Of a stretch of 64,000 nucleotides of DNA, positions 7,282 to 54,179 are shown piece by piece. Position 1 is the stretch's first letter. Every line of letters begins with the position of its first letter. The position numbers and the translations under genes are program-made. This stretch comes from a virus. The stretch is taken from IMG/VR virus record IMGVR_UViG_3300020055_000005, positions 87,190 to 151,189 of that record. The stretch is one strand, 5' to 3'. Under the pieces are notes generated by a model. That model was not told where the DNA came from. It ran no database searches and was given only the letters and a program-made list of their open reading frames with translations.

Positions 7282-7371
7282 TGGCGGAGAGGGAGGGATT
7301 CGAACCCTCGATACGTTCTCACGTATGCTGGTTTTCAAGACCAGTGCATTCAACCGCTCTGCCACCTCTCC
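7282..7371 (-). tRNA. tRNA-Ser (TGA)
   Basis: Cloverleaf with long variable arm, anticodon loop CT-TGA-AA, TTCGAAT, encoded CCA. Confidence 0.97.
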
Positions 7372-7849: not shown

Positions 7850-7925
7850 TGGTGGAGCTGGAGGGAATCGAACCCACGACCTCCTGAATGCAAATCAGGC
7901 GCTCTCCCAACTGAGCTACAGCCCC
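7850..7925 (-). tRNA. tRNA-Ala (TGC)
   Basis: GGGGCTG acceptor stem with G3:U70, anticodon TGC, CCA. Confidence 0.97.
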
Positions 7926-22882: not shown

Positions 22883-22958
<76 letters not shown>

Positions 22959-22959
<1 letters not shown>

Positions 22960-33954: not shown

Positions 33955-34030
33955 TGGCGATTCCAAGGGGACTCGAACCCCTAATACTACCGTGACAGGG
34001 TAGCGTGTTAACCAATTACACCATGGAACC
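33955..34030 (-). tRNA. tRNA-Asp (GTC)
   Basis: Cloverleaf, anticodon GTC, CCA. Confidence 0.96.
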
Positions 34031-34141: not shown

Positions 34142-34216
34142 TGGTACCCTGTAGGAGAATCGAACTCCTGTTGCATGGATGAAAACCATGTGTCCTAACC
34201 ACTAGACGAACAGGGC
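34142..34216 (-). tRNA. tRNA-Glu (TTC)
   Basis: Cloverleaf, anticodon TTC, CCA. Confidence 0.96.
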
Positions 34217-37488: not shown

Positions 37489-37671
37489 TTATGTGTTTTG
37501 TGAAGGGGTTTTTTTTAATTCTTTTGAAATTTCTGATAATTTAACTTCGCACTTGACGTGTTCTTCCATCATAGTACGTAACACTCTTATTTGCATTTCC
37601 ATGTGGGCGACAAAACCCATAATCACTAGGATAGAACCTAAGTAAAAACAATCTAAGAGATCAAGTGTCAT
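37489..37671 (-). CDS. Small membrane protein
   Basis: N-terminal TM. Confidence 0.6.
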   Translation of the reverse strand: MTLDLLDCFYLGSILVIMGFVAHMEMQIRVLRTMMEEHVKCEVKLSEISKELKKTPSQNT

Positions 37672-38108
37672 AGTTCTACTTCACCTGATTCAGTTAATAT
37701 ATCCCTATTTTTTAGATGTTCTGCTTCGATCTCTTCTTTGTTTCCACCACCATAATCGACTGCATGATGATCATCAATCATTTGTTGATTGACATTTATT
37801 TCTGTTTCGAATTGAGGATGACCCTCATTGTTATGAATGTAAATCTCTCCAAGGATTCTACCAAACTTACCTTTATCGTGTGAGATAAGAGAAATTCTTT
37901 CACCACTTTCTAGAAGTTTCTTTAAGTGTTTCTTTGATGCTTTTCCAAATTTCTTTTCAACCAAGTCTCTTGTTCTAGATTCAGGCGTGTCGATACCCAT
38001 GAGCCTAACTCTTTGTTTGCGATAGGTCATGCCGAATCCTAGATCGATGTCCACGTCTATAGTGTCACCATCCACTACTTTTATAACTGATACATTATAC
38101 TGATACAT
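37668..38108 (-). CDS. Thermonuclease (SNase-like)
   Basis: VVDGDT, RLMGIDTPES, KFGRILG. Confidence 0.9.
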   Translation of the reverse strand: MYQYNVSVIKVVDGDTIDVDIDLGFGMTYRKQRVRLMGIDTPESRTRDLVEKKFGKASKKHLKKLLESGERISLISHDKGKFGRILGEIYIHNNEGHPQFETEINVNQQMIDDHHAVDYGGGNKEEIEAEHLKNRDILTESGEVEL

Positions 38109-38128: not shown

Positions 38129-38153
38129 TTAAGGGGAACTCAGTCCCCCTTAA
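38129..38153 (-). terminator. Stem-loop / terminator
   Basis: TTAAGGGG...CCCCTTAA inverted repeat. Confidence 0.55.
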
Positions 38154-38231
38154 CAGTTCTACATTTCTGTGGGAACTCTGAACAGTAGAGCATCATTGCC
38201 TCTAGCAACATTGCTGTTGGAATGACTTCTT

Positions 38232-38504
38232 CTACTTTTTTTCAGGCGTCTCCTGTAGTTCATCGGTTTGTCTGTCAACCTCATCTGCAACAGTGTCTAC
38301 TACACCTATTACAGTTTCAGTTGCGAGAGTACCGACTGATACTACATCGTCTGCTACTGCTGTTGCAACGGTTCTTGTTCCTTTTACTGCACCGTCAACA
38401 ACACCAGTTGTAAATTCTTTACCACCTTCAATTACACTACCAACTGTAGCGCATGATGGAAGTAATACCACAGAAAATAGTAACATATACATTACTATTT
38501 TCAT
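38232..38504 (-). CDS. Small lipoprotein; probable -1 frameshift extension to 38140
   Basis: Lipobox-like LPSC, amphipathic G/V/T repeats; A_AAA_AAG directly before TAG. Confidence 0.7.
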   Translation of the reverse strand: MKIVMYMLLFSVVLLPSCATVGSVIEGGKEFTTGVVDGAVKGTRTVATAVADDVVSVGTLATETVIGVVDTVADEVDRQTDELQETPEKK

Positions 38505-38567
38505 AATTATCTCCAAATTTGGATAAATCTGTTACACCTCCAACTGAGAGTGTAACCCCACATTTAT

Positions 38568-38843
38568 TTATGTAAGATAACAACCTGAAGACTTTAGTTT
38601 GAGGTCAATCTCGTTATGCACCTCGTATGGGTATGGTACTGGTTCTATAGATAGATTTTCTGCAGCTATCATTAGGTCTTCTAATCTGAGTCTTTCTTTG
38701 ACGTATGTAATAATAATCACTATTGCACCTATAAATGCGAATATGTGTAACATTTCATTTGGAAACATAATCGTAAGTCCAATAATATGTGCAACCAGCA
38801 CACTATACACATAAAACTTTATACTAATCAGTAGGTGCCACAT
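38568..38843 (-). CDS. Membrane protein
   Basis: Two TMs. Confidence 0.6.
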   Translation of the reverse strand: MWHLLISIKFYVYSVLVAHIIGLTIMFPNEMLHIFAFIGAIVIIITYVKERLRLEDLMIAAENLSIEPVPYPYEVHNEIDLKLKSSGCYLT

Positions 38844-38991
38844 TCAACAACAAATCCTTAAACTCATTCGTGTGCCAATAACTATCTAATGTGATATCAA
38901 CTACTAGTGCAATCAATACCATTGTTAAGATAATCCCCAAATATAAATTGACGAATGCATTAATTTTCATCCATCGTATCAAGTGTTTCAT
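38824..38991 (-). CDS. Small membrane protein (55 aa)
   Basis: MKHLIRWMKINAFVNLYLGIILTMVLIALVV... Confidence 0.6.
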   Translation of the reverse strand: MKHLIRWMKINAFVNLYLGIILTMVLIALVVDITLDSYWHTNEFKDLLLNVAPTD

Positions 38992-46901: not shown

Positions 46902-47534
46902 TTATCTCTTATTACAAGTACCTTTTACTCTATCAAGAACTTGCATGTTATTATGGACAACCATTGAAGTTAAAAGTATTGGTGCATACAAGTCTTCGTT
47001 TGTAATAGTCACTGCTTCGTGAATTGCACTATAAGAAGGAATAAGAATTACACTCTTTAAAAATAACATTTCACCTAATGTTGGTATACGAGGCAAAAGT
47101 GGATTCAATTCATAAACACAATCATATTGCATACCTTTAGATGTTGACCAAACATCTGCAAGTTGTAATGCAACAAACACTGCCCATACCTCTATATCTG
47201 CTGGTTCTCTAAACTGTATATATGGTAACTTTTTCGGATTTTCCCTTAACAAGGATTCTATCGACTTCTGTAAATGCTGTTGATGGACATAATCTATAAG
47301 TTCTTTCCGATAACAACACTCGTACCCCATCATAATTTCTTGTTTGACCTTCGAGTCTAGCTCCCAAGTTGACGGCATCTCCAATGACGGAATAGTCAAA
47401 TCTAAGTTCTGACCCCATGTTTCCAACGATGCACTCACCTGTAGAGATGCCGATACCGACATCAATAGAAGGAAGACCTTCAACTTCAAGTTCCTTAATA
47501 AGTTCATCCGCCTTAACCGAAATTTCTTGGGCAC
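46902..47534 (-). CDS. Membrane protein, start uncertain (overlaps cyclase gene)
   Basis: LQLADVWST...ELNPLL...K...N hydrophobic domain in the non-overlapped part. Confidence 0.6.
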   Translation of the reverse strand: MPKKFRLRRMNLLRNLKLKVFLLLMSVSASLQVSASLETWGQNLDLTIPSLEMPSTWELDSKVKQEIMMGYECCYRKELIDYVHQQHLQKSIESLLRENPKKLPYIQFREPADIEVWAVFVALQLADVWSTSKGMQYDCVYELNPLLPRIPTLGEMLFLKSVILIPSYSAIHEAVTITNEDLYAPILLTSMVVHNNMQVLDRVKGTCNKR

Positions 47535-49050
47535 TTTTTACTGCCATCTCTGCGTGATCTTCACAGTCCAAGGGAGCATTCCAAAATGCCATGATACAAT
47601 CGCCCATGTATTTGTCGATGGTTCCTCCATTCGACAATATTATTTTTGTCATGGTATCAAGGTATTTATTAATTAACATAACTAACCCTTCAGGGTCATC
47701 ATTATTCTTATAGTGTTCTGATATTGGAGTGAACCCACAGATATCCATAAAGAGGAATGTCATTTCTTTTCTCTGACCACCTAACACTAGCATGTCAGGA
47801 TTATCCTGTAGTTGTTTGACCATCTCAGGAGATAAATACTTTTGGAACTGTTTTCTAATCTGTTCCTTGAGTTGAAATGTCACATAGTATTTGTTATATG
47901 ATGCATGTCCAAAAACAATCAAGGAGGCGATTGATGAGTAGAAAGTATCGAAAAGAACGAGACTTGAAGACCACAAATAGAAACCCCCACCCACCTGAAA
48001 TCCTACAACACCTAGACTCCCTAGAGCCGCAAAAGTTGTGGGAAGTTTGTAGACCATTACCAACACTAATATCAGAACTATCAGAAGAAGAACAACTTCT
48101 AGAAATTCAAGATAGTAGGATTGTTGTATTTGAGCTTCTTGCAAGACGGTTTGGAGGATTGAGGCTTGAACTTCGTGGGGATACATTGTACCCACTGGAG
48201 TTGAAACTGGATTATTCAGACCTTCCGCTGTCAGACCCCAAATCAGAATCTTATTCTGTACATCACTAGAAGGTAAATCTACTGCAGATATTCTTTCGAA
48301 ATCATGCCAATAGGAAATCATAATATCTCCTGTTGGTGTGGTTTCGATAGGAGGTTGTCTCCCCATTCTAATCCATTCTATACCGACTTCCTGTGTAACT
48401 CTTGTTTGATAATTGGGCTGATCATAAAATGCACGTAGTGTCTCTAACACTATAGATGGATATATCTGATCATTTGCAGTAACGATTAGTGGTGCAGAAC
48501 GAACTGTTCCGTCAAAGTTTGGTGTTCCTGCGAATGGTGGTGTTGCAGTTGTTACTCCTACACCATAAGTGTTATCCTGTAAGATAGGAAGTGGTGCAAC
48601 GATTCCTGTAAAGTTCCATACACTATCTTTGATATCTCCACCCCCAAATATAGAAGTGTTAACAAAAGGTGCAGAACCTTTTTGTATTTGTGCAGATGGA
48701 GCTGCAGATAGAATTGTCAACCGATTGATTAATCCTTCGGCGAACATCTCATCTTCGCTGGCGTCTCGGTCAGGTTTACTGAATAATTGTGTAAATACGT
48801 GAGTGTTAGTGTAATGAGTGTCTAAGAGGATATCCCTGTAGATACTACGTTTGATTGGATACTGTCCATACACTTCAAGTGTCTTTTCATCAATATCTAC
48901 TAAAACAATATTCTCCGTCGCCAGGCGTTCTTGAGTCTGATGTAAGAAGTCGAACCATGACCACTGGATATTTTCAACAACGTATGGTGACCAAACCTTC
49001 AGTCCGACCAATAGTGAAATGGTCACTAAGACTGTTTTCCAACTATACAT
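47209..49050 (-). CDS. CHASE2-domain class III adenylate cyclase
   Basis: IVLVDIDE and DGTVR (CHASE2), three TMs, FMDICGFT, DKYMGD, GDAVNLGARLE; Lys/Asp ATP-specifying residues. Confidence 0.93.
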   Translation of the reverse strand: MYSWKTVLVTISLLVGLKVWSPYVVENIQWSWFDFLHQTQERLATENIVLVDIDEKTLEVYGQYPIKRSIYRDILLDTHYTNTHVFTQLFSKPDRDASEDEMFAEGLINRLTILSAAPSAQIQKGSAPFVNTSIFGGGDIKDSVWNFTGIVAPLPILQDNTYGVGVTTATPPFAGTPNFDGTVRSAPLIVTANDQIYPSIVLETLRAFYDQPNYQTRVTQEVGIEWIRMGRQPPIETTPTGDIMISYWHDFERISAVDLPSSDVQNKILIWGLTAEGLNNPVSTPVGTMYPHEVQASILQTVLQEAQIQQSYYLEFLEVVLLLIVLILVLVMVYKLPTTFAALGSLGVVGFQVGGGFYLWSSSLVLFDTFYSSIASLIVFGHASYNKYYVTFQLKEQIRKQFQKYLSPEMVKQLQDNPDMLVLGGQRKEMTFLFMDICGFTPISEHYKNNDDPEGLVMLINKYLDTMTKIILSNGGTIDKYMGDCIMAFWNAPLDCEDHAEMAVKSAQEISVKADELIKELEVEGLPSIDVGIGISTGECIVGNMGSELRFDYSVIGDAVNLGARLEGQTRNYDGVRVLLSERTYRLCPSTAFTEVDRILVKGKSEKVTIYTV

Positions 49051-49307
49051 TATGAAAATTTCTTTTGAATATATTTAAAAATTGCGTAGATTGATAATCC
49101 GTAAAATGCAAGTACGGACATTGGTATACCGATATATGCAAGTTCCCATGGTGATAAAAATAAAATCTCCCATGCAAAGTTTGATGCAGCTTCCACATCA
49201 CCCATTGCTTCAGGCATTGCAATATCATTCTCTACAAATAGGTCTAAAATCTCATCGTATTCTTCTTCGGTGAGACATTCATAAAACTCAGGAGGACACT
49301 CTGTCAT
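49050..49307 (-). CDS. Small membrane protein
   Basis: C-terminal TM; coupled to cyclase start. Confidence 0.7.
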   Translation of the reverse strand: MTECPPEFYECLTEEEYDEILDLFVENDIAMPEAMGDVEAASNFAWEILFLSPWELAYIGIPMSVLAFYGLSIYAIFKYIQKKFS

Positions 49308-50138
49308 TTAGTTTCCCTGAGTTACATTTACAGTGCATCCACCTACGGTGTGACATGTTTGTGTTAATGAATATGTTTGATTAGTGTCACCTGTTTGAGT
49401 CAGAGTTAAATCCGTCCCATAGGTTCCACCTAGTGTTATGGTTGCAGTATGAGCTCCAGTCTTTTTCTGAACAACATGTACTTCATTGTTATCGTTATTG
49501 ATTGTTCCTGTGAGTGTCTTGTTTCCGTTCTGCAATTGTTTTGAGAAGACATCGTTGTAGTCACCATAAATGTTCCAAGTCATGGAATGAGTTATACTAC
49601 TTGAATCTTGTTTCTGACTTCCTTTAAAGTCATTGTAGTCACCATGAATATCTAATCTTACAAAGTTCCCACCAGGCTCTGTTCCATCATAATCCCAAGT
49701 AGGTGTAAGTGAGTTATTAAGTTCATACCCTTGACCAAAGACAACTTGATTGTAATTACCTTGAATGTGGAATTGGAAATCATTGTCATTACATGTTGCA
49801 AAGGAACATCTTTGTCTGATTTCTATATCGTTGTCTTGTCCGTCTAAGTCTCCACCCCAATTATAACCTGAACCCCATGCATCAGTATATCCAATGTACA
49901 TGTTGTTACCTTTTTGAGCTAACTTTATAGTGTTGTCTTGATGATCAAAAGAAAAGAGAACTGTATTTGCAAAACCTTGTTGTGTTACATCTAAATCTAA
50001 ATTATCACCACTATTAACTTGTCTGATATCTATTGAGTTATCGTCTGCGTGGACGACACCAATAAAAAGGATGAATGGCGCCCAAGGCGCCACCCAGTAC
50101 TTGTAAAATAAACGTTTTATTTTATTTAAAAAATCCAT
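49308..50138 (-). CDS. Secreted curlin-like beta-solenoid protein
   Basis: Signal ending VHA; repeated (Q/H/Y)-G-x-x-N units. Confidence 0.75.
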   Translation of the reverse strand: MDFLNKIKRLFYKYWVAPWAPFILFIGVVHADDNSIDIRQVNSGDNLDLDVTQQGFANTVLFSFDHQDNTIKLAQKGNNMYIGYTDAWGSGYNWGGDLDGQDNDIEIRQRCSFATCNDNDFQFHIQGNYNQVVFGQGYELNNSLTPTWDYDGTEPGGNFVRLDIHGDYNDFKGSQKQDSSSITHSMTWNIYGDYNDVFSKQLQNGNKTLTGTINNDNNEVHVVQKKTGAHTATITLGGTYGTDLTLTQTGDTNQTYSLTQTCHTVGGCTVNVTQGN

Positions 50139-50272
50139 GCTAATAATAATCCCAAAACTAGACCTTTTGTGAATGAAATCCACATTGCATGGTACTCTGT
50201 AATTCCAAGTGATTGAATCCACTTGTAACTCCAGTTCTCATGCCAGTCAAGAAGTTTTCTTAAATTATCCAT
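50126..50272 (-). CDS. Small membrane protein (48 aa)
   Basis: AGGAG SD; MDNLRKLLDWHE...WISFTKGLVLGLLLAWIF. Confidence 0.65.
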   Translation of the reverse strand: MDNLRKLLDWHENWSYKWIQSLGITEYHAMWISFTKGLVLGLLLAWIF

Positions 50273-50298
50273 ATAAGTCTCCTAAGTTCCTTTACTAT

Positions 50299-51444
50299 TT
50301 AGTTAGTTTGATTTATAAAAATCTCGATTGCTGGGTCTCCGTTACCGAATTCGATAACACCCTGATAGCCTTCGACATACGTATCTATAAATCCTGAATT
50401 CCCATTCTGTATGATTATCTCAATAACACCGTTTACATTACGATAAAAATATAAGTCTCCGTCTTGTACAAAGACATTGTATTGTGAATCTTTATTGAAT
50501 CCCATAACTGCACCTTTAAGTGTAACAGTTCCACCACCTGAGTCTGCCTGCACATCTTTCAGTGCGACTGTTGTTCTTGTTAACTCTTCTACTACATCTA
50601 ATAGGTCAGTAAGGAAATCAACATCTAATAAATCTATGTCTAATTCTGAAAACTCTAAATCTTCTTTAGTGTCTTCTAATGCATCTTGTTCTAATTCATT
50701 AAACTCAAGGAAATCTACATCTAGTATTCCTTGATCTTGGTCTTGGTCATCTGCAACTTGGTCTTCAATTGCTTGTTTGATTTCTGTAGGTGGATTGACG
50801 ATAAACATATTGTCAATCAATGCAGGTGTGATACCATTTATAACTACAGATGATGTTGGTGGACTATCCAAAGACGATACCATAGTTGCTTGATACGCCT
50901 CATTGAGTGTCACTTCTCCACCTAAGTTTGACACTACTATTTCACCTGATGCATCTCCGTTTGCATCTGGCAAAAGTATAACGAGTGACCTTCCGATCTC
51001 ATCAATACTCGTTGTAAAATCTGTTCCGTTGATTGCGATTTGTGCCGTAGGTGTTGACACATTGATATTTTTCTTTCTGATTTTTTGACCTGTACCTGAT
51101 GCAAATCGAGCTGTACCTTGCACCATTCTGATTGACATTTTGGATAGGTCAGGGTTTGGGTCATAATATGCTTCATCGATATAGACCCTAGTCTGTTCAG
51201 TCATATCAATAAACTCGTTATCCAGTAGAACTATTTTCATTCTACCATTACCAGTTCTTGCCTCATCATAGAGGATGACATCACTACCGACTGAATGTGG
51301 ATATGACTCTGTACCACGTAGGAGTTCACCCACTCCTGTTGATTCTACAATGTCACCAATGGGGTCATTTGCATGAACCCCACTGATAAACAACAAACTA
51401 AGAATCGTTAGCTGAGTCTTTCTGATTAATTTGAATGATCGCAT
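50299..51444 (-). CDS. Secreted FecR-domain protein
   Basis: D..RTG...M..GTARF..G...TPTAQIAINGTDF; start approximate. Confidence 0.85.
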   Translation of the reverse strand: MRSFKLIRKTQLTILSLLFISGVHANDPIGDIVESTGVGELLRGTESYPHSVGSDVILYDEARTGNGRMKIVLLDNEFIDMTEQTRVYIDEAYYDPNPDLSKMSIRMVQGTARFASGTGQKIRKKNINVSTPTAQIAINGTDFTTSIDEIGRSLVILLPDANGDASGEIVVSNLGGEVTLNEAYQATMVSSLDSPPTSSVVINGITPALIDNMFIVNPPTEIKQAIEDQVADDQDQDQGILDVDFLEFNELEQDALEDTKEDLEFSELDIDLLDVDFLTDLLDVVEELTRTTVALKDVQADSGGGTVTLKGAVMGFNKDSQYNVFVQDGDLYFYRNVNGVIEIIIQNGNSGFIDTYVEGYQGVIEFGNGDPAIEIFINQTN

Positions 51445-52138
51445 TGTCACTCGTAATGTCAAGTGTTAAGATTGATGTAGGTGATGAACAACCTGATGCA
51501 CCTGAAGGACAGGTACCTGTTAATTGGTTAATATCTACATCTGCACTATCCCCATCAAGTGTAAAAGTAAGTGATGAGTCACTTGCATCATTTTGTAAAG
51601 TATTAATATTGTTTGAGGAACCAGTGACATCAAAATTCCATGTCAGGTTGTCTGCCTCCCAATCAATATCAAAAACATTCGAACTACCGATCAATATTAG
51701 ATCGGCGTCTAAAGATTCTGCGCTAGTAACATAACCTTGGTCGATATCAAAAGTATTAGAACTTCCAGTTACGTCAAAATTAATGTTAGAGCTATCTGCA
51801 CTGCCGAGATAACCGATGTTCCAATCTATTGAGTTAGAATCTCCAGTGAAGTCCAACTTATAGTATGAACTATCTGCAACAACTGGCCCGAATAGGACGT
51901 TGTTGTTGCCTGTAAAATCTAAATCAAACTCTAATGTTGCACCTGTGATACTCATTGTACTTGATACTGAACCTGAGGAACCATTGTCCCCACCGATTTT
52001 GTTACCAAAACCAACTTGGTCAATATAAAGTTTCAAAGTGTCACCAGTTTGAGTGATCTTAATTTCGTTATCATCAGTGGCTTGTGCGAAAACGAATCCA
52101 GTCGACATTAATAAAATTAAACTAATTAGTTTCTTCAT
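51398..52138 (-). CDS. Secreted curlin-like beta-solenoid protein
   Basis: Signal peptide; repeated x-G-x-x-N units. Confidence 0.75.
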   Translation of the reverse strand: MKKLISLILLMSTGFVFAQATDDNEIKITQTGDTLKLYIDQVGFGNKIGGDNGSSGSVSSTMSITGATLEFDLDFTGNNNVLFGPVVADSSYYKLDFTGDSNSIDWNIGYLGSADSSNINFDVTGSSNTFDIDQGYVTSAESLDADLILIGSSNVFDIDWEADNLTWNFDVTGSSNNINTLQNDASDSSLTFTLDGDSADVDINQLTGTCPSGASGCSSPTSILTLDITSDNAIIQINQKDSANDS

Positions 52139-53033
52139 TTTCGTTATACCCTTTTATTTTCCAAAAACCCCTATGGTGTCCTTGGTAGATTAATTCCAAC
52201 ACTGCAGCCTCAATCGCTGTTCGTGTTGCGTAAGTCACTGATTCATTATTACCCACACCGTCTTCAATCTCTATAAGTTGGGTTCCTTGTTCGACGAATC
52301 TAAAAACATCGCCTCCTGAACCGTAACTCAAAAGAGTTTTCCGAGTTTGTACATTTAGTAAAACTTCTCCAGTGAGAACACTTACTGCTCTCATAGAAAT
52401 TGTGACAACATCTTGTCGATACTGTCTCGAATAACCAATGCCGAGGGTTCTTGCGCCTGTTCCCCCAGTTTTAATATTGGTATCATAGCCAATTATACCA
52501 CCCTCTATTATCATTCCTGCGAACAATAGAGGTTGAATTCCTTTAGGGTCATCCCCTGTTGCAGATGCATACTCCTGTCTTGCAGAACGTATGATCTGTC
52601 TCTCTCTTATTAATGCATCAATTCCATTTCTTTCTACAACACGAAACCATGTTCCGTCTCCTGCAGTTTTTAATGCATCGATAACCATCTCTACTCCACC
52701 TTGTGTTACGGCAGTTGAGAATGATGCAATGTTATCAACAGACTTTCTTTGTCCTGTTTTGTCTAAAAAATTATAGACAGTTACAATTGGTCTCTCTTCT
52801 GCAGGTGGTAGTTTTAAAAGTTCCAAGTAGGAAGGTAACCTAACTACCTGTGGACTTTCTACGCAAATGTATCTACGTGTAACCTGTTTTGCAACACCTG
52901 TAACTACGTCTTTACCAAACCCTTCATCGAACCTACCTGTTTCATAGGCACAGTCTGCTGGGTTATCAGACCACTTTGGGACTGATGCACATCCACTTAT
53001 AAGAAGTGTTAATGCAAGTAAATACTTAACCAT
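52122..53033 (-). CDS. csgG: Curli secretion pore lipoprotein CsgG
   Basis: Lipobox ISGC, VYNFLDKTGQRK, STAVTQG, ERQIIR, EGGIIGYD. Confidence 0.93.
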   Translation of the reverse strand: MVKYLLALTLLISGCASVPKWSDNPADCAYETGRFDEGFGKDVVTGVAKQVTRRYICVESPQVVRLPSYLELLKLPPAEERPIVTVYNFLDKTGQRKSVDNIASFSTAVTQGGVEMVIDALKTAGDGTWFRVVERNGIDALIRERQIIRSARQEYASATGDDPKGIQPLLFAGMIIEGGIIGYDTNIKTGGTGARTLGIGYSRQYRQDVVTISMRAVSVLTGEVLLNVQTRKTLLSYGSGGDVFRFVEQGTQLIEIEDGVGNNESVTYATRTAIEAAVLELIYQGHHRGFWKIKGYNENEETN

Positions 53034-53535
53034 CTCCACCACCAGTGTCAGGGTCTTGTCCAAAGTTTCCTGTTCCTACTGGTATCTCAATGACTGTTGT
53101 TGTTCCTTCGGTATCGATAATAGTCATTTTGATAACATCAGTTCCGTCTGCGTTAGTTATTACCTCCCATGTAATAACACTTCCTTCAAGCGTAAATGAC
53201 CCAAAGTTTGATGCAGTATCATTACTAAACATTGATTCAACTAACTGTTTAGATAGCTGTGCGTAAATTCTCGATTCTAAATTTCTGATAAATTTTGCAA
53301 GCGTGGTATTGTCCGCTTCTCTTTCTGCGGCCTTCCTTGCCGCCTCCAAGGCATCCTCTATTTGTTTCTTCCTTGAGAACTCTTGGTTCTCAATAGTCAA
53401 ATAATGGGCACCTGTACCGACCCCACTAAAGCTGGGGTTCTTAAATCCAAATTTAATTTCGTCTGCATAAACGTTTTGTGCATGTAAGAACAAAACGAAT
53501 ATAATTGCACTACTTACTAATACTTTTTTTAACAT
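53026..53535 (-). CDS. csgF: Curli assembly factor CsgF
   Basis: Signal peptide then FKNPSFSG, resembling the CsgF pore-binding N-terminus; adjacent to csgG. Confidence 0.8.
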   Translation of the reverse strand: MLKKVLVSSAIIFVLFLHAQNVYADEIKFGFKNPSFSGVGTGAHYLTIENQEFSRKKQIEDALEAARKAAEREADNTTLAKFIRNLESRIYAQLSKQLVESMFSNDTASNFGSFTLEGSVITWEVITNADGTDVIKMTIIDTEGTTTVIEIPVGTGNFGQDPDTGGGDG

Positions 53536-53812
53536 TCTTTTTCACCCCTTTCAATAGGGCGTCCTCTTCTATTTTCTCTTTCATTCTGTATTCTAAGACT
53601 ACGTTAACTTTTTGTTGAAGTCTAATCATGTCTTGATCTAACATCCTAGTTTGATCAATAACACGTATCAATGCAATGTGCATCTTTTCAATTTCAGGTT
53701 CTATTCTTTCAGAGATAAACTTCCAAATGAAGAAGATAAAATACCCCATACCAACACTCATGACAACAGGAAAACCGTAATCTTTAATTAGGTTTGCTAT
53801 ATCTAAATCCAT
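53510..53812 (-). CDS. Small membrane/coiled-coil protein
   Basis: DYGFP TM helix, RMLDQDMIRL. Confidence 0.7.
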   Translation of the reverse strand: MDLDIANLIKDYGFPVVMSVGMGYFIFFIWKFISERIEPEIEKMHIALIRVIDQTRMLDQDMIRLQQKVNVVLEYRMKEKIEEDALLKGVKKNVKKSISK

Positions 53813-53834
53813 TGTCCGTGTGTCCTATGCGCTA

Positions 53835-54128
53835 TTAGTCTCTCCTCACGTCGAGTTTACCGTCTTCTATGAAGTTTTCTGATCGTGAGATTCTATCGAT
53901 ATCAGGTCTCAATTCTAATGCAGATGAGACTAACATGTCTATCTTAATCATTTCGTTTGACATTGTTCTTGCTCGGTTCTCTAAACTTTCACAGAACATG
54001 GTAAGCGTTTTTATATCGTCTACTATACCTTCAAGGATTTGTTTGAGTACGATAAAAATGAAGACACCCATCACAATTGCCATTGCGATAGGAGTTCCCA
54101 CGTCAGTTATCAAGTCAAACATTTCCAT
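53835..54128 (-). CDS. Small membrane/coiled-coil protein, paralogue of neighbour
   Basis: DVGTP TM helix, RTMSNEMIKID. Confidence 0.7.
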   Translation of the reverse strand: MEMFDLITDVGTPIAMAIVMGVFIFIVLKQILEGIVDDIKTLTMFCESLENRARTMSNEMIKIDMLVSSALELRPDIDRISRSENFIEDGKLDVRRD

Positions 54129-54179
54129 ACGATTATTTATGGAAATAGACTGTTTGCCTGTCAATAAAATGACAGCTTA

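Follow-up and report, generated by a model that had tools for sequence, protein, structure and literature searches.

A conserved −1 frameshift signal predicted to yield two isoforms of an envelope lipoprotein in uncultured marine T4-like phages

A lipoprotein gene with a predicted programmed frameshift

We propose that a lipoprotein gene of an uncultured, marine, T4-like phage very probably harbors a conserved and canonical programmed −1 ribosomal frameshift, which would direct the synthesis of two isoforms of the protein. The gene lies in a DNA stretch of 64,000 nucleotides (hereafter, the window), which is part of a 151-kb IMG/VR virus record. The phage is present in salt-marsh samples (runs X1–X20). 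The DNA polymerase of this phage has its nearest cultured counterparts in cyanomyoviruses, with 48% identity only.

The zero-frame lipoprotein gene, corresponding to the short isoform, occupies positions 38232–38504 of the minus strand (ATG at 38504, 90 codons plus TAG, from the ORF list and its translation), and its 3′ end reads CCT GAA AAA AAG TAG. The preliminary description of this DNA had placed a slippery A_AAA_AAG directly before the stop, and a direct reading of the sequence confirmed it: the heptamer spans 38235–38241 (minus strand) in the X_XXY_YYZ register and is immediately followed on its 3′ side by the TAG codon (38232–38234, minus strand). The −1 extension and its stop cover 38140–38235 (minus strand), with 31 codons at 38143–38235 and the TGA at 38140–38142. 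As had also been claimed, this frame ends inside a terminator-like stem-loop found in the window (38134–38149, minus strand), the TGA being located in the loop. The precursor of the long isoform would thus have 121 codons, versus 90 for the short one.

In the proposed mechanism, the majority of the ribosomes would reach the TAG codon and produce the 90-codon precursor. A fraction of them, paused by a hairpin located 8 nt downstream, would slip back by one base on A_AAA_AAG and read 31 more codons, thereby adding an amphipathic helix ending with a Y-C-x6-C motif. The window carries five phage tRNA genes, for Ser (7282–7371), Ala (7850–7925), Thr (22883–22959), Asp (33955–34030) and Glu (34142–34216); since none of them is a Lys tRNA gene, the tRNA acting at the slip site must be that of the host.

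Lipoprotein features and database searches

The protein had been described as a lipoprotein, and its N-terminus bears this out. The hydrophobic signal sequence (38451–38504, minus strand) ends with a lipobox, the Cys18 residue of which, the presumed site of lipid attachment, is invariant in 17 diverse homologues; it is followed by A-[ST]-[VI]-G and mostly preceded, at position −1, by G, A or S. We infer from these features that the protein is cleaved and lipidated at Cys18. In E. coli, an alanine at position +2 leads to sorting to the outer membrane, and the alanine found at this position points to the same destination here.

The short and fused forms (the latter being described below) had no significant match in Pfam, NCBIfam and PHROGs, nor did the lipoprotein have any in PADLOC, the PDB sequence profiles and the ESM Atlas. 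Similarly, no relative was found in cultured phages by tblastn with three family members, or in a scan of the GTDB species genomes, and we found no report in the literature of a frameshift in this lipoprotein gene family. Gene callers miss the recoding site, so that the long isoform is absent from protein databases. An AlphaFold model of the fused form (mean pLDDT of 48; about 70 for the tail helix) was too poor for a fold search.

Conservation of the slip site and of the downstream hairpin

In the A+T-rich DNA of the window, A_AAA_AAG occurs 32 times, versus 26 ± 5 in shuffled sequences. The heptamer by itself is therefore not above chance, whereas its conservation together with the −1 frame exceeds chance. 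The preliminary description had called for a check of the homologues for both elements, and they proved to be widely kept. The scan of IMG/VR identified 74 related loci, representing 46 distinct sequences, and the protein search identified 63 homologous proteins. An in-frame X_XXY_YYZ site placed 0–1 codon before the stop, together with a −1 ORF of 31–50 codons, is present in 43 of the 46 distinct IMG/VR sequences, and also in further metagenome groups that were added from the contigs behind distant representatives and through a search with the extension itself. These extra groups, the extensions of which have 40–67 codons, contribute the C_CCA_AAA and G_GGA_AAC heptamers. In total, the related loci number about 90 and can be sorted into at least 13 sequence groups, with identities to the window protein going down to about 45%, and their −1 extensions span 31–67 codons.

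Across these groups (at least 13), four heptamer types occur, all in register: A_AAA_AAG, G_GGA_AAG (in three groups), C_CCA_AAA and G_GGA_AAC. The stop codon is located 0 or 3 nt 3′ of the heptamer in all 13 groups, 11 of which have AAG as the A-site codon. According to the tree of the zero-frame proteins, there were at least two to three switches of heptamer type, always to a slippery one. Members with the frameshift are found on either side of the root and those lacking it form two nested sets, which suggests that the frameshift has an old origin and was subsequently lost, within the limits of a midpoint-rooted tree of a short protein with moderate branch support. The extension is dispensable in some phages, since it is absent from distant homologues (L073–L076, L094, L095 and L097).

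The preliminary description had also claimed a hairpin 8 nt downstream of the heptamer. The spacing was correct: the core of the hairpin predicted by folding (38192–38226, minus strand; the outer pairs may reach 38185–38235) starts 8 nt 3′ of the heptamer. The CAACA/UGUUG register proposed for its stem did not stand, for comparison with the sister group favors AGCA/UGCU flanked by CC/GG. Indeed, between the window's group and its sister group (A and B), the inner stem displays a C-G to U-A double change, and 91% of the cells are paired across nine distinct A/B sequences, which together favor the register given by the folding program. Two more changes in the stem between these groups are one-sided and involve G-U, so that the covariation support amounts to one double change. 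The 57 nt starting from the heptamer fold with −14.2 kcal/mol (z = −2.58), a value matched by 4 of 200 shuffled sequences. The hairpin of the window is moderately stable (−11 to −14 kcal/mol) and ranks in the best 9.7% of the local 45-nt segments.

Every group possesses a predicted hairpin 5–8 nt 3′ of the heptamer, in which a pyrimidine-rich 5′ arm usually pairs with a purine-rich 3′ arm, and the hairpin sequences are unrelated between groups. For 9 of 11 representatives, the hairpin belongs to the best 0.5–10% of the segments of the same locus; that of group G is unremarkable as compared to its local segments. As for an upstream stimulatory element, the AGGAG sequence lying 7 nt 5′ of the window heptamer was considered and rejected, because the relatives do not keep it.

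These features bear on whether the ribosome or RNA polymerase would slip at the heptamer. RNA polymerase might slip on the run of seven A and add one A to some transcripts, which would yield the same long protein, and such a run is indeed found in groups A–D, G and H. We regard this explanation as very unlikely, for the following reasons. First, efficient polymerase slippage requires about nine A/T, and five groups with G_GGA_AAG, C_CCA_AAA or G_GGA_AAC have the same layout with runs of 3–4 bases only, which are too short for polymerase slippage to explain them. Second, both the X_XXY_YYZ register and the hairpin at 5–8 nt, which are ribosomal signals, are conserved. Third, the contigs from RNA libraries carry seven A, although such contigs hide minor variants. 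Hence, we attribute the slippage to the ribosome, as judged from these signals; polymerase slippage could be a contributor on the run of seven A.

The extension as a coding sequence

The two-cysteine tail that had been ascribed to the longer form turned out to be the best-conserved part of the extension. In the window, the alignment of the extension peptides places the Y-C-x6-C motif at 38161–38187 (minus strand), after an amphipathic helix. The Y, C, P and C residues are invariant in 12 extension peptides from seven groups. Across groups, the extension ends with an amphipathic helix followed by [Y/F]C-x5-6-C, a motif also present in the groups found later, with one distant group having F-C-x5-C. 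The first 10–25 residues of the extension are wholly different between groups; each group having its own hairpin sequence there, this first part is not conserved as a protein.

The substitution pattern is that of a protein read in the −1 frame. Within groups A and B, the window's two closest, the pN/pS of the extension is 0.26 in the −1 frame versus 0.76 and 1.33 in the other frames, and the numbers of variable columns at codon positions 3, 1 and 2 are 16, 5 and 5, respectively. For the helix-plus-cysteine block of 14 representatives, the pN/pS is 0.45 in the −1 frame versus 1.02 and 1.53, the synonymous sites being near saturation in this cross-group comparison. These values indicate that, of the three frames of the extension, only the −1 frame is under purifying selection.

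It is highly improbable that this stretch is not joined to the lipoprotein and is either a separate tiny ORF or conserved as RNA only. The RNA hairpins do overlap the region, and ATG codons occur at positions 9, 14 and 15 of the extension in the window's group. No start codon is conserved among groups, however: the extension of group C has no ATG, GTG or TTG anywhere, and that of group F has a single start-type codon, 3 codons before the cysteine motif. Furthermore, the protein-like substitution pattern is restricted to the −1 frame, the peptide motifs are kept in spite of the divergence of the nucleotide sequence, and there is a natural in-frame fusion. In the window and in most groups, a TGA codon of the −1 frame stands immediately 5′ of the heptamer.

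This fusion (protein P0060) occurs in locus L077 (159–569), where the body and the tail are in a single frame. Its near-identical sibling L078 (437–811) differs from it by a clean 29-nt deletion with identical flanks. The deletion removed the heptamer, the stop and the 5′ arm of the hairpin from L077, thereby placing the tail in frame. As it comes from one 1.2-kb metagenome contig with a coverage of about 1.3, we consider this fusion to be supportive of the predicted frameshift rather than decisive. When the tail of P0060 was used to look for other fused forms, the only match was P0060 itself. Another candidate fusion (P0094, in locus L088) was discounted, as it lies in a long-read contig with several indels in the same gene. 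In this 252-kb contig, the lipoprotein gene (L088:560–1100) is broken by these indels, and the apparent fusions in such assemblies are unreliable. A protein of 3831 residues (P0082) was likewise discarded as a relative, because its profile match looks compositional.

The mature short form has no cysteine besides the lipid-attachment one, and the long form gains exactly two. Hence, a disulfide loop would be expected in the long form. In the oxidising periplasm, the tail would form this small loop either within one chain or between chains, and our best guess is that it acts as an optional interaction module of the envelope protein.

Independent assemblies of the site

An assembly error at the heptamer had been put forward as what could undo the frameshift, and the search for an eight-A run was negative in all assemblies. 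Contigs from the RNA libraries of two samples, as well as an independent DNA contig, are identical to the window over 38156–38487, with seven A at the site, and more than 80 independent short-read assemblies agree on the run length, none of them having eight A. An assembly indel is thus excluded. More generally, and despite the fact that homopolymer runs are prone to indels, as in the long-read contig L088, it is hardly conceivable that an indel in the A run hides a continuous ORF, or that a recent frameshift mutation left a dead tail, since besides these concordant assemblies non-homopolymer heptamers occur elsewhere in the family and purifying selection acts on the tail across lineages, with synonymous divergence being saturated. 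The RNA contigs end near 38156, which is uninformative as to the 3′ end of the transcript because a DNA contig ends there too.

Gene neighborhood and expression

In the window, the lipoprotein gene is preceded by two genes of small membrane proteins on the same (minus) strand, one of 91 residues with two predicted membrane segments (38568–38843) and one of 55 residues with one predicted membrane segment (38824–38991). In groups A, B, D2, F, G and H, the lipoprotein gene is immediately preceded by a gene of the two-segment type, and the 55-residue protein is 56–100% identical in relatives with unrelated contexts. This recurrence in otherwise unrelated contexts suggests that the three genes form an envelope cassette. 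In L065, L071, L080, L089, L059 and L095, the lipoprotein gene comes after those of a highly conserved single-pass protein of 43–57 residues (N-terminus MKHMI[KR]W) and of a variable two-pass protein. In the window, the lipoprotein gene is directly followed by a staphylococcal-nuclease-like gene (37668–38108, minus strand), also located between gp43 and uvsX.

In other lineages, the cassette or the lipoprotein gene is found inside a curli-like locus, where the neighbors are curlin-repeat proteins, a FecR-like protein and a CHASE2 cyclase, or else CsgF and CsgG just downstream. The window phage also has a curli-like locus, at about 47209–54164 on the minus strand, approximately 9–16 kb from the lipoprotein gene. 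It comprises, all on that strand, two small membrane proteins (53835–54164 and 53510–53812), CsgF (53026–53535), the CsgG lipoprotein (52122–53063), two curlin-repeat proteins (51398–52138 and 49308–50222), a 387-residue protein (50299–51462) that is placed like the FecR-type gene of the relatives, a likeness of position only, and a CHASE2 cyclase-type protein (47209–49050), so named by likeness to the relatives scanned. CsgG was found in all five long related contigs tested, within 2–12 kb. The lipoprotein itself did not match the family profiles of CsgC, CsgE, CsgF, CsgG and curlin, and its link to the locus is one of neighborhood only.

From these neighborhoods, our best guess is that the lipoprotein is an envelope protein acting with the two small membrane proteins encoded upstream and/or with the CsgG/CsgF module of the phage. 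It is a rather unlikely, though more specific, proposal that the frameshifted lipoprotein is an accessory subunit of a phage CsgG/CsgF outer-membrane pore, the slip site setting the share of subunits with the disulfide-looped tail; were it true, the tail might serve, for example, as a gate or a tether timing the opening of the pore or lysis. At L074:3267–3752, L074:3952–4371 and L076:2397–2783, two distant homologues lacking the frameshift (L074 and L076) stand beside lysis genes, i.e., a GTA-type holin with three transmembrane segments and an M15 peptidase, which hints at a lysis-related role for the family.

The gene had been presented as late, a claim that found no backing in its surroundings: it lies between gp43 and uvsX, with no TATAAATA within about 7 kb upstream and no T4 late promoter near it. 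A sigma-70-like site at 38506–38535 was rejected on two grounds: the overlap of its −10 element with the ribosome-binding site, and a frequency of such sites no higher than in shuffled sequences. In three metatranscriptome assemblies, the summed contig depth was 9–118 over 38170–38511 versus 0–4 over the neighboring genes; a DNA run was roughly flat over the same region, at about 10. The RNA peak may be due to a stable transcript or to a promoter located in the 63 nt that separate the gene from its upstream neighbor, contig depth being a poor measure.

Comparison with known systems

Phage curli operons with CsgG and CsgF are known from pelagimyophages and from the methylophage Melnitz, where their role is unexplained (PMC7029224, PMC9004378); neither article mentions the lipoprotein or a frameshift. 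The window phage has CsgG as well, and the locus includes or adjoins the lipoprotein gene in several lineages. Curlin repeats, i.e., candidate fibre subunits, were reported as missing in these two articles and are present in the locus of the window. The link between the lipoprotein and this locus offers a concrete way into the role of this phage module.

With respect to the outer membrane, the Rz/Rz1 spanins resemble the present system in that they include a small phage outer-membrane lipoprotein, periplasmic cysteines and a second reading frame. Unlike the predicted long isoform, Rz1 is translated from a start codon of its own with no frameshift, and there is no sequence similarity. The possibility of an Rz1-like o-spanin was rejected, as no i-spanin with a membrane anchor and a long periplasmic coiled coil is adjacent: the 91-residue neighbor combines two predicted membrane segments with a tail of about 44 residues, and the 55-residue protein combines a single segment with a tail of about 24 residues.

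With respect to recoding, the predicted site shares with the tau/gamma site of E. coli dnaX the A_AAA_AAG heptamer, a lysine AAG codon in the A site, a downstream hairpin (at about 6 nt in dnaX) and isoforms with a common N-terminal part. The proteins are unrelated and, unlike here, the shifted frame of dnaX ends early, which makes the frameshift product the shorter of the two isoforms; a stimulatory Shine-Dalgarno-like element also lies upstream in dnaX, whereas the AGGAG of the window is not conserved. In T7, gene 10A/10B similarly combines a −1 shift near the stop with a short C-terminal extension on a fraction of the molecules, but it encodes a structural capsid protein without a signal peptide and uses a different slip site.

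The annotated phage frameshifts are almost all those of tail chaperones (PMC10885494), with capsid proteins accounting for others. For their own tail chaperones, T4-like phages are believed to dispense with frameshifting (Vladimirov et al. 2022, as cited in PMC10885494). Like lambda G/GT, three groups of the present family use G_GGA_AAG, and slippage at the end of the gene would add a C-terminal domain to a minority of the chains; as in G/GT and its analogues, diverged phages retain the arrangement in spite of sequence drift. Unlike G/GT, the present gene has a downstream hairpin and would encode an exported lipoprotein, not a tail protein, either between gp43 and uvsX or in a curli-like locus. 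A tail assembly chaperone was in fact rejected, as the gene does not lie between major tail and tape-measure genes, its neighbors being those of the DNA polymerase, the nuclease and UvsX.

The family includes four types of heptamer, over ten distinct hairpins and one fused form, and constitutes a natural comparison set for studying the upkeep of slip sites. The mechanism is a classical one, and what is new is the setting of this well-supported recoding site, namely an exported envelope protein of abundant marine T4-like phages.
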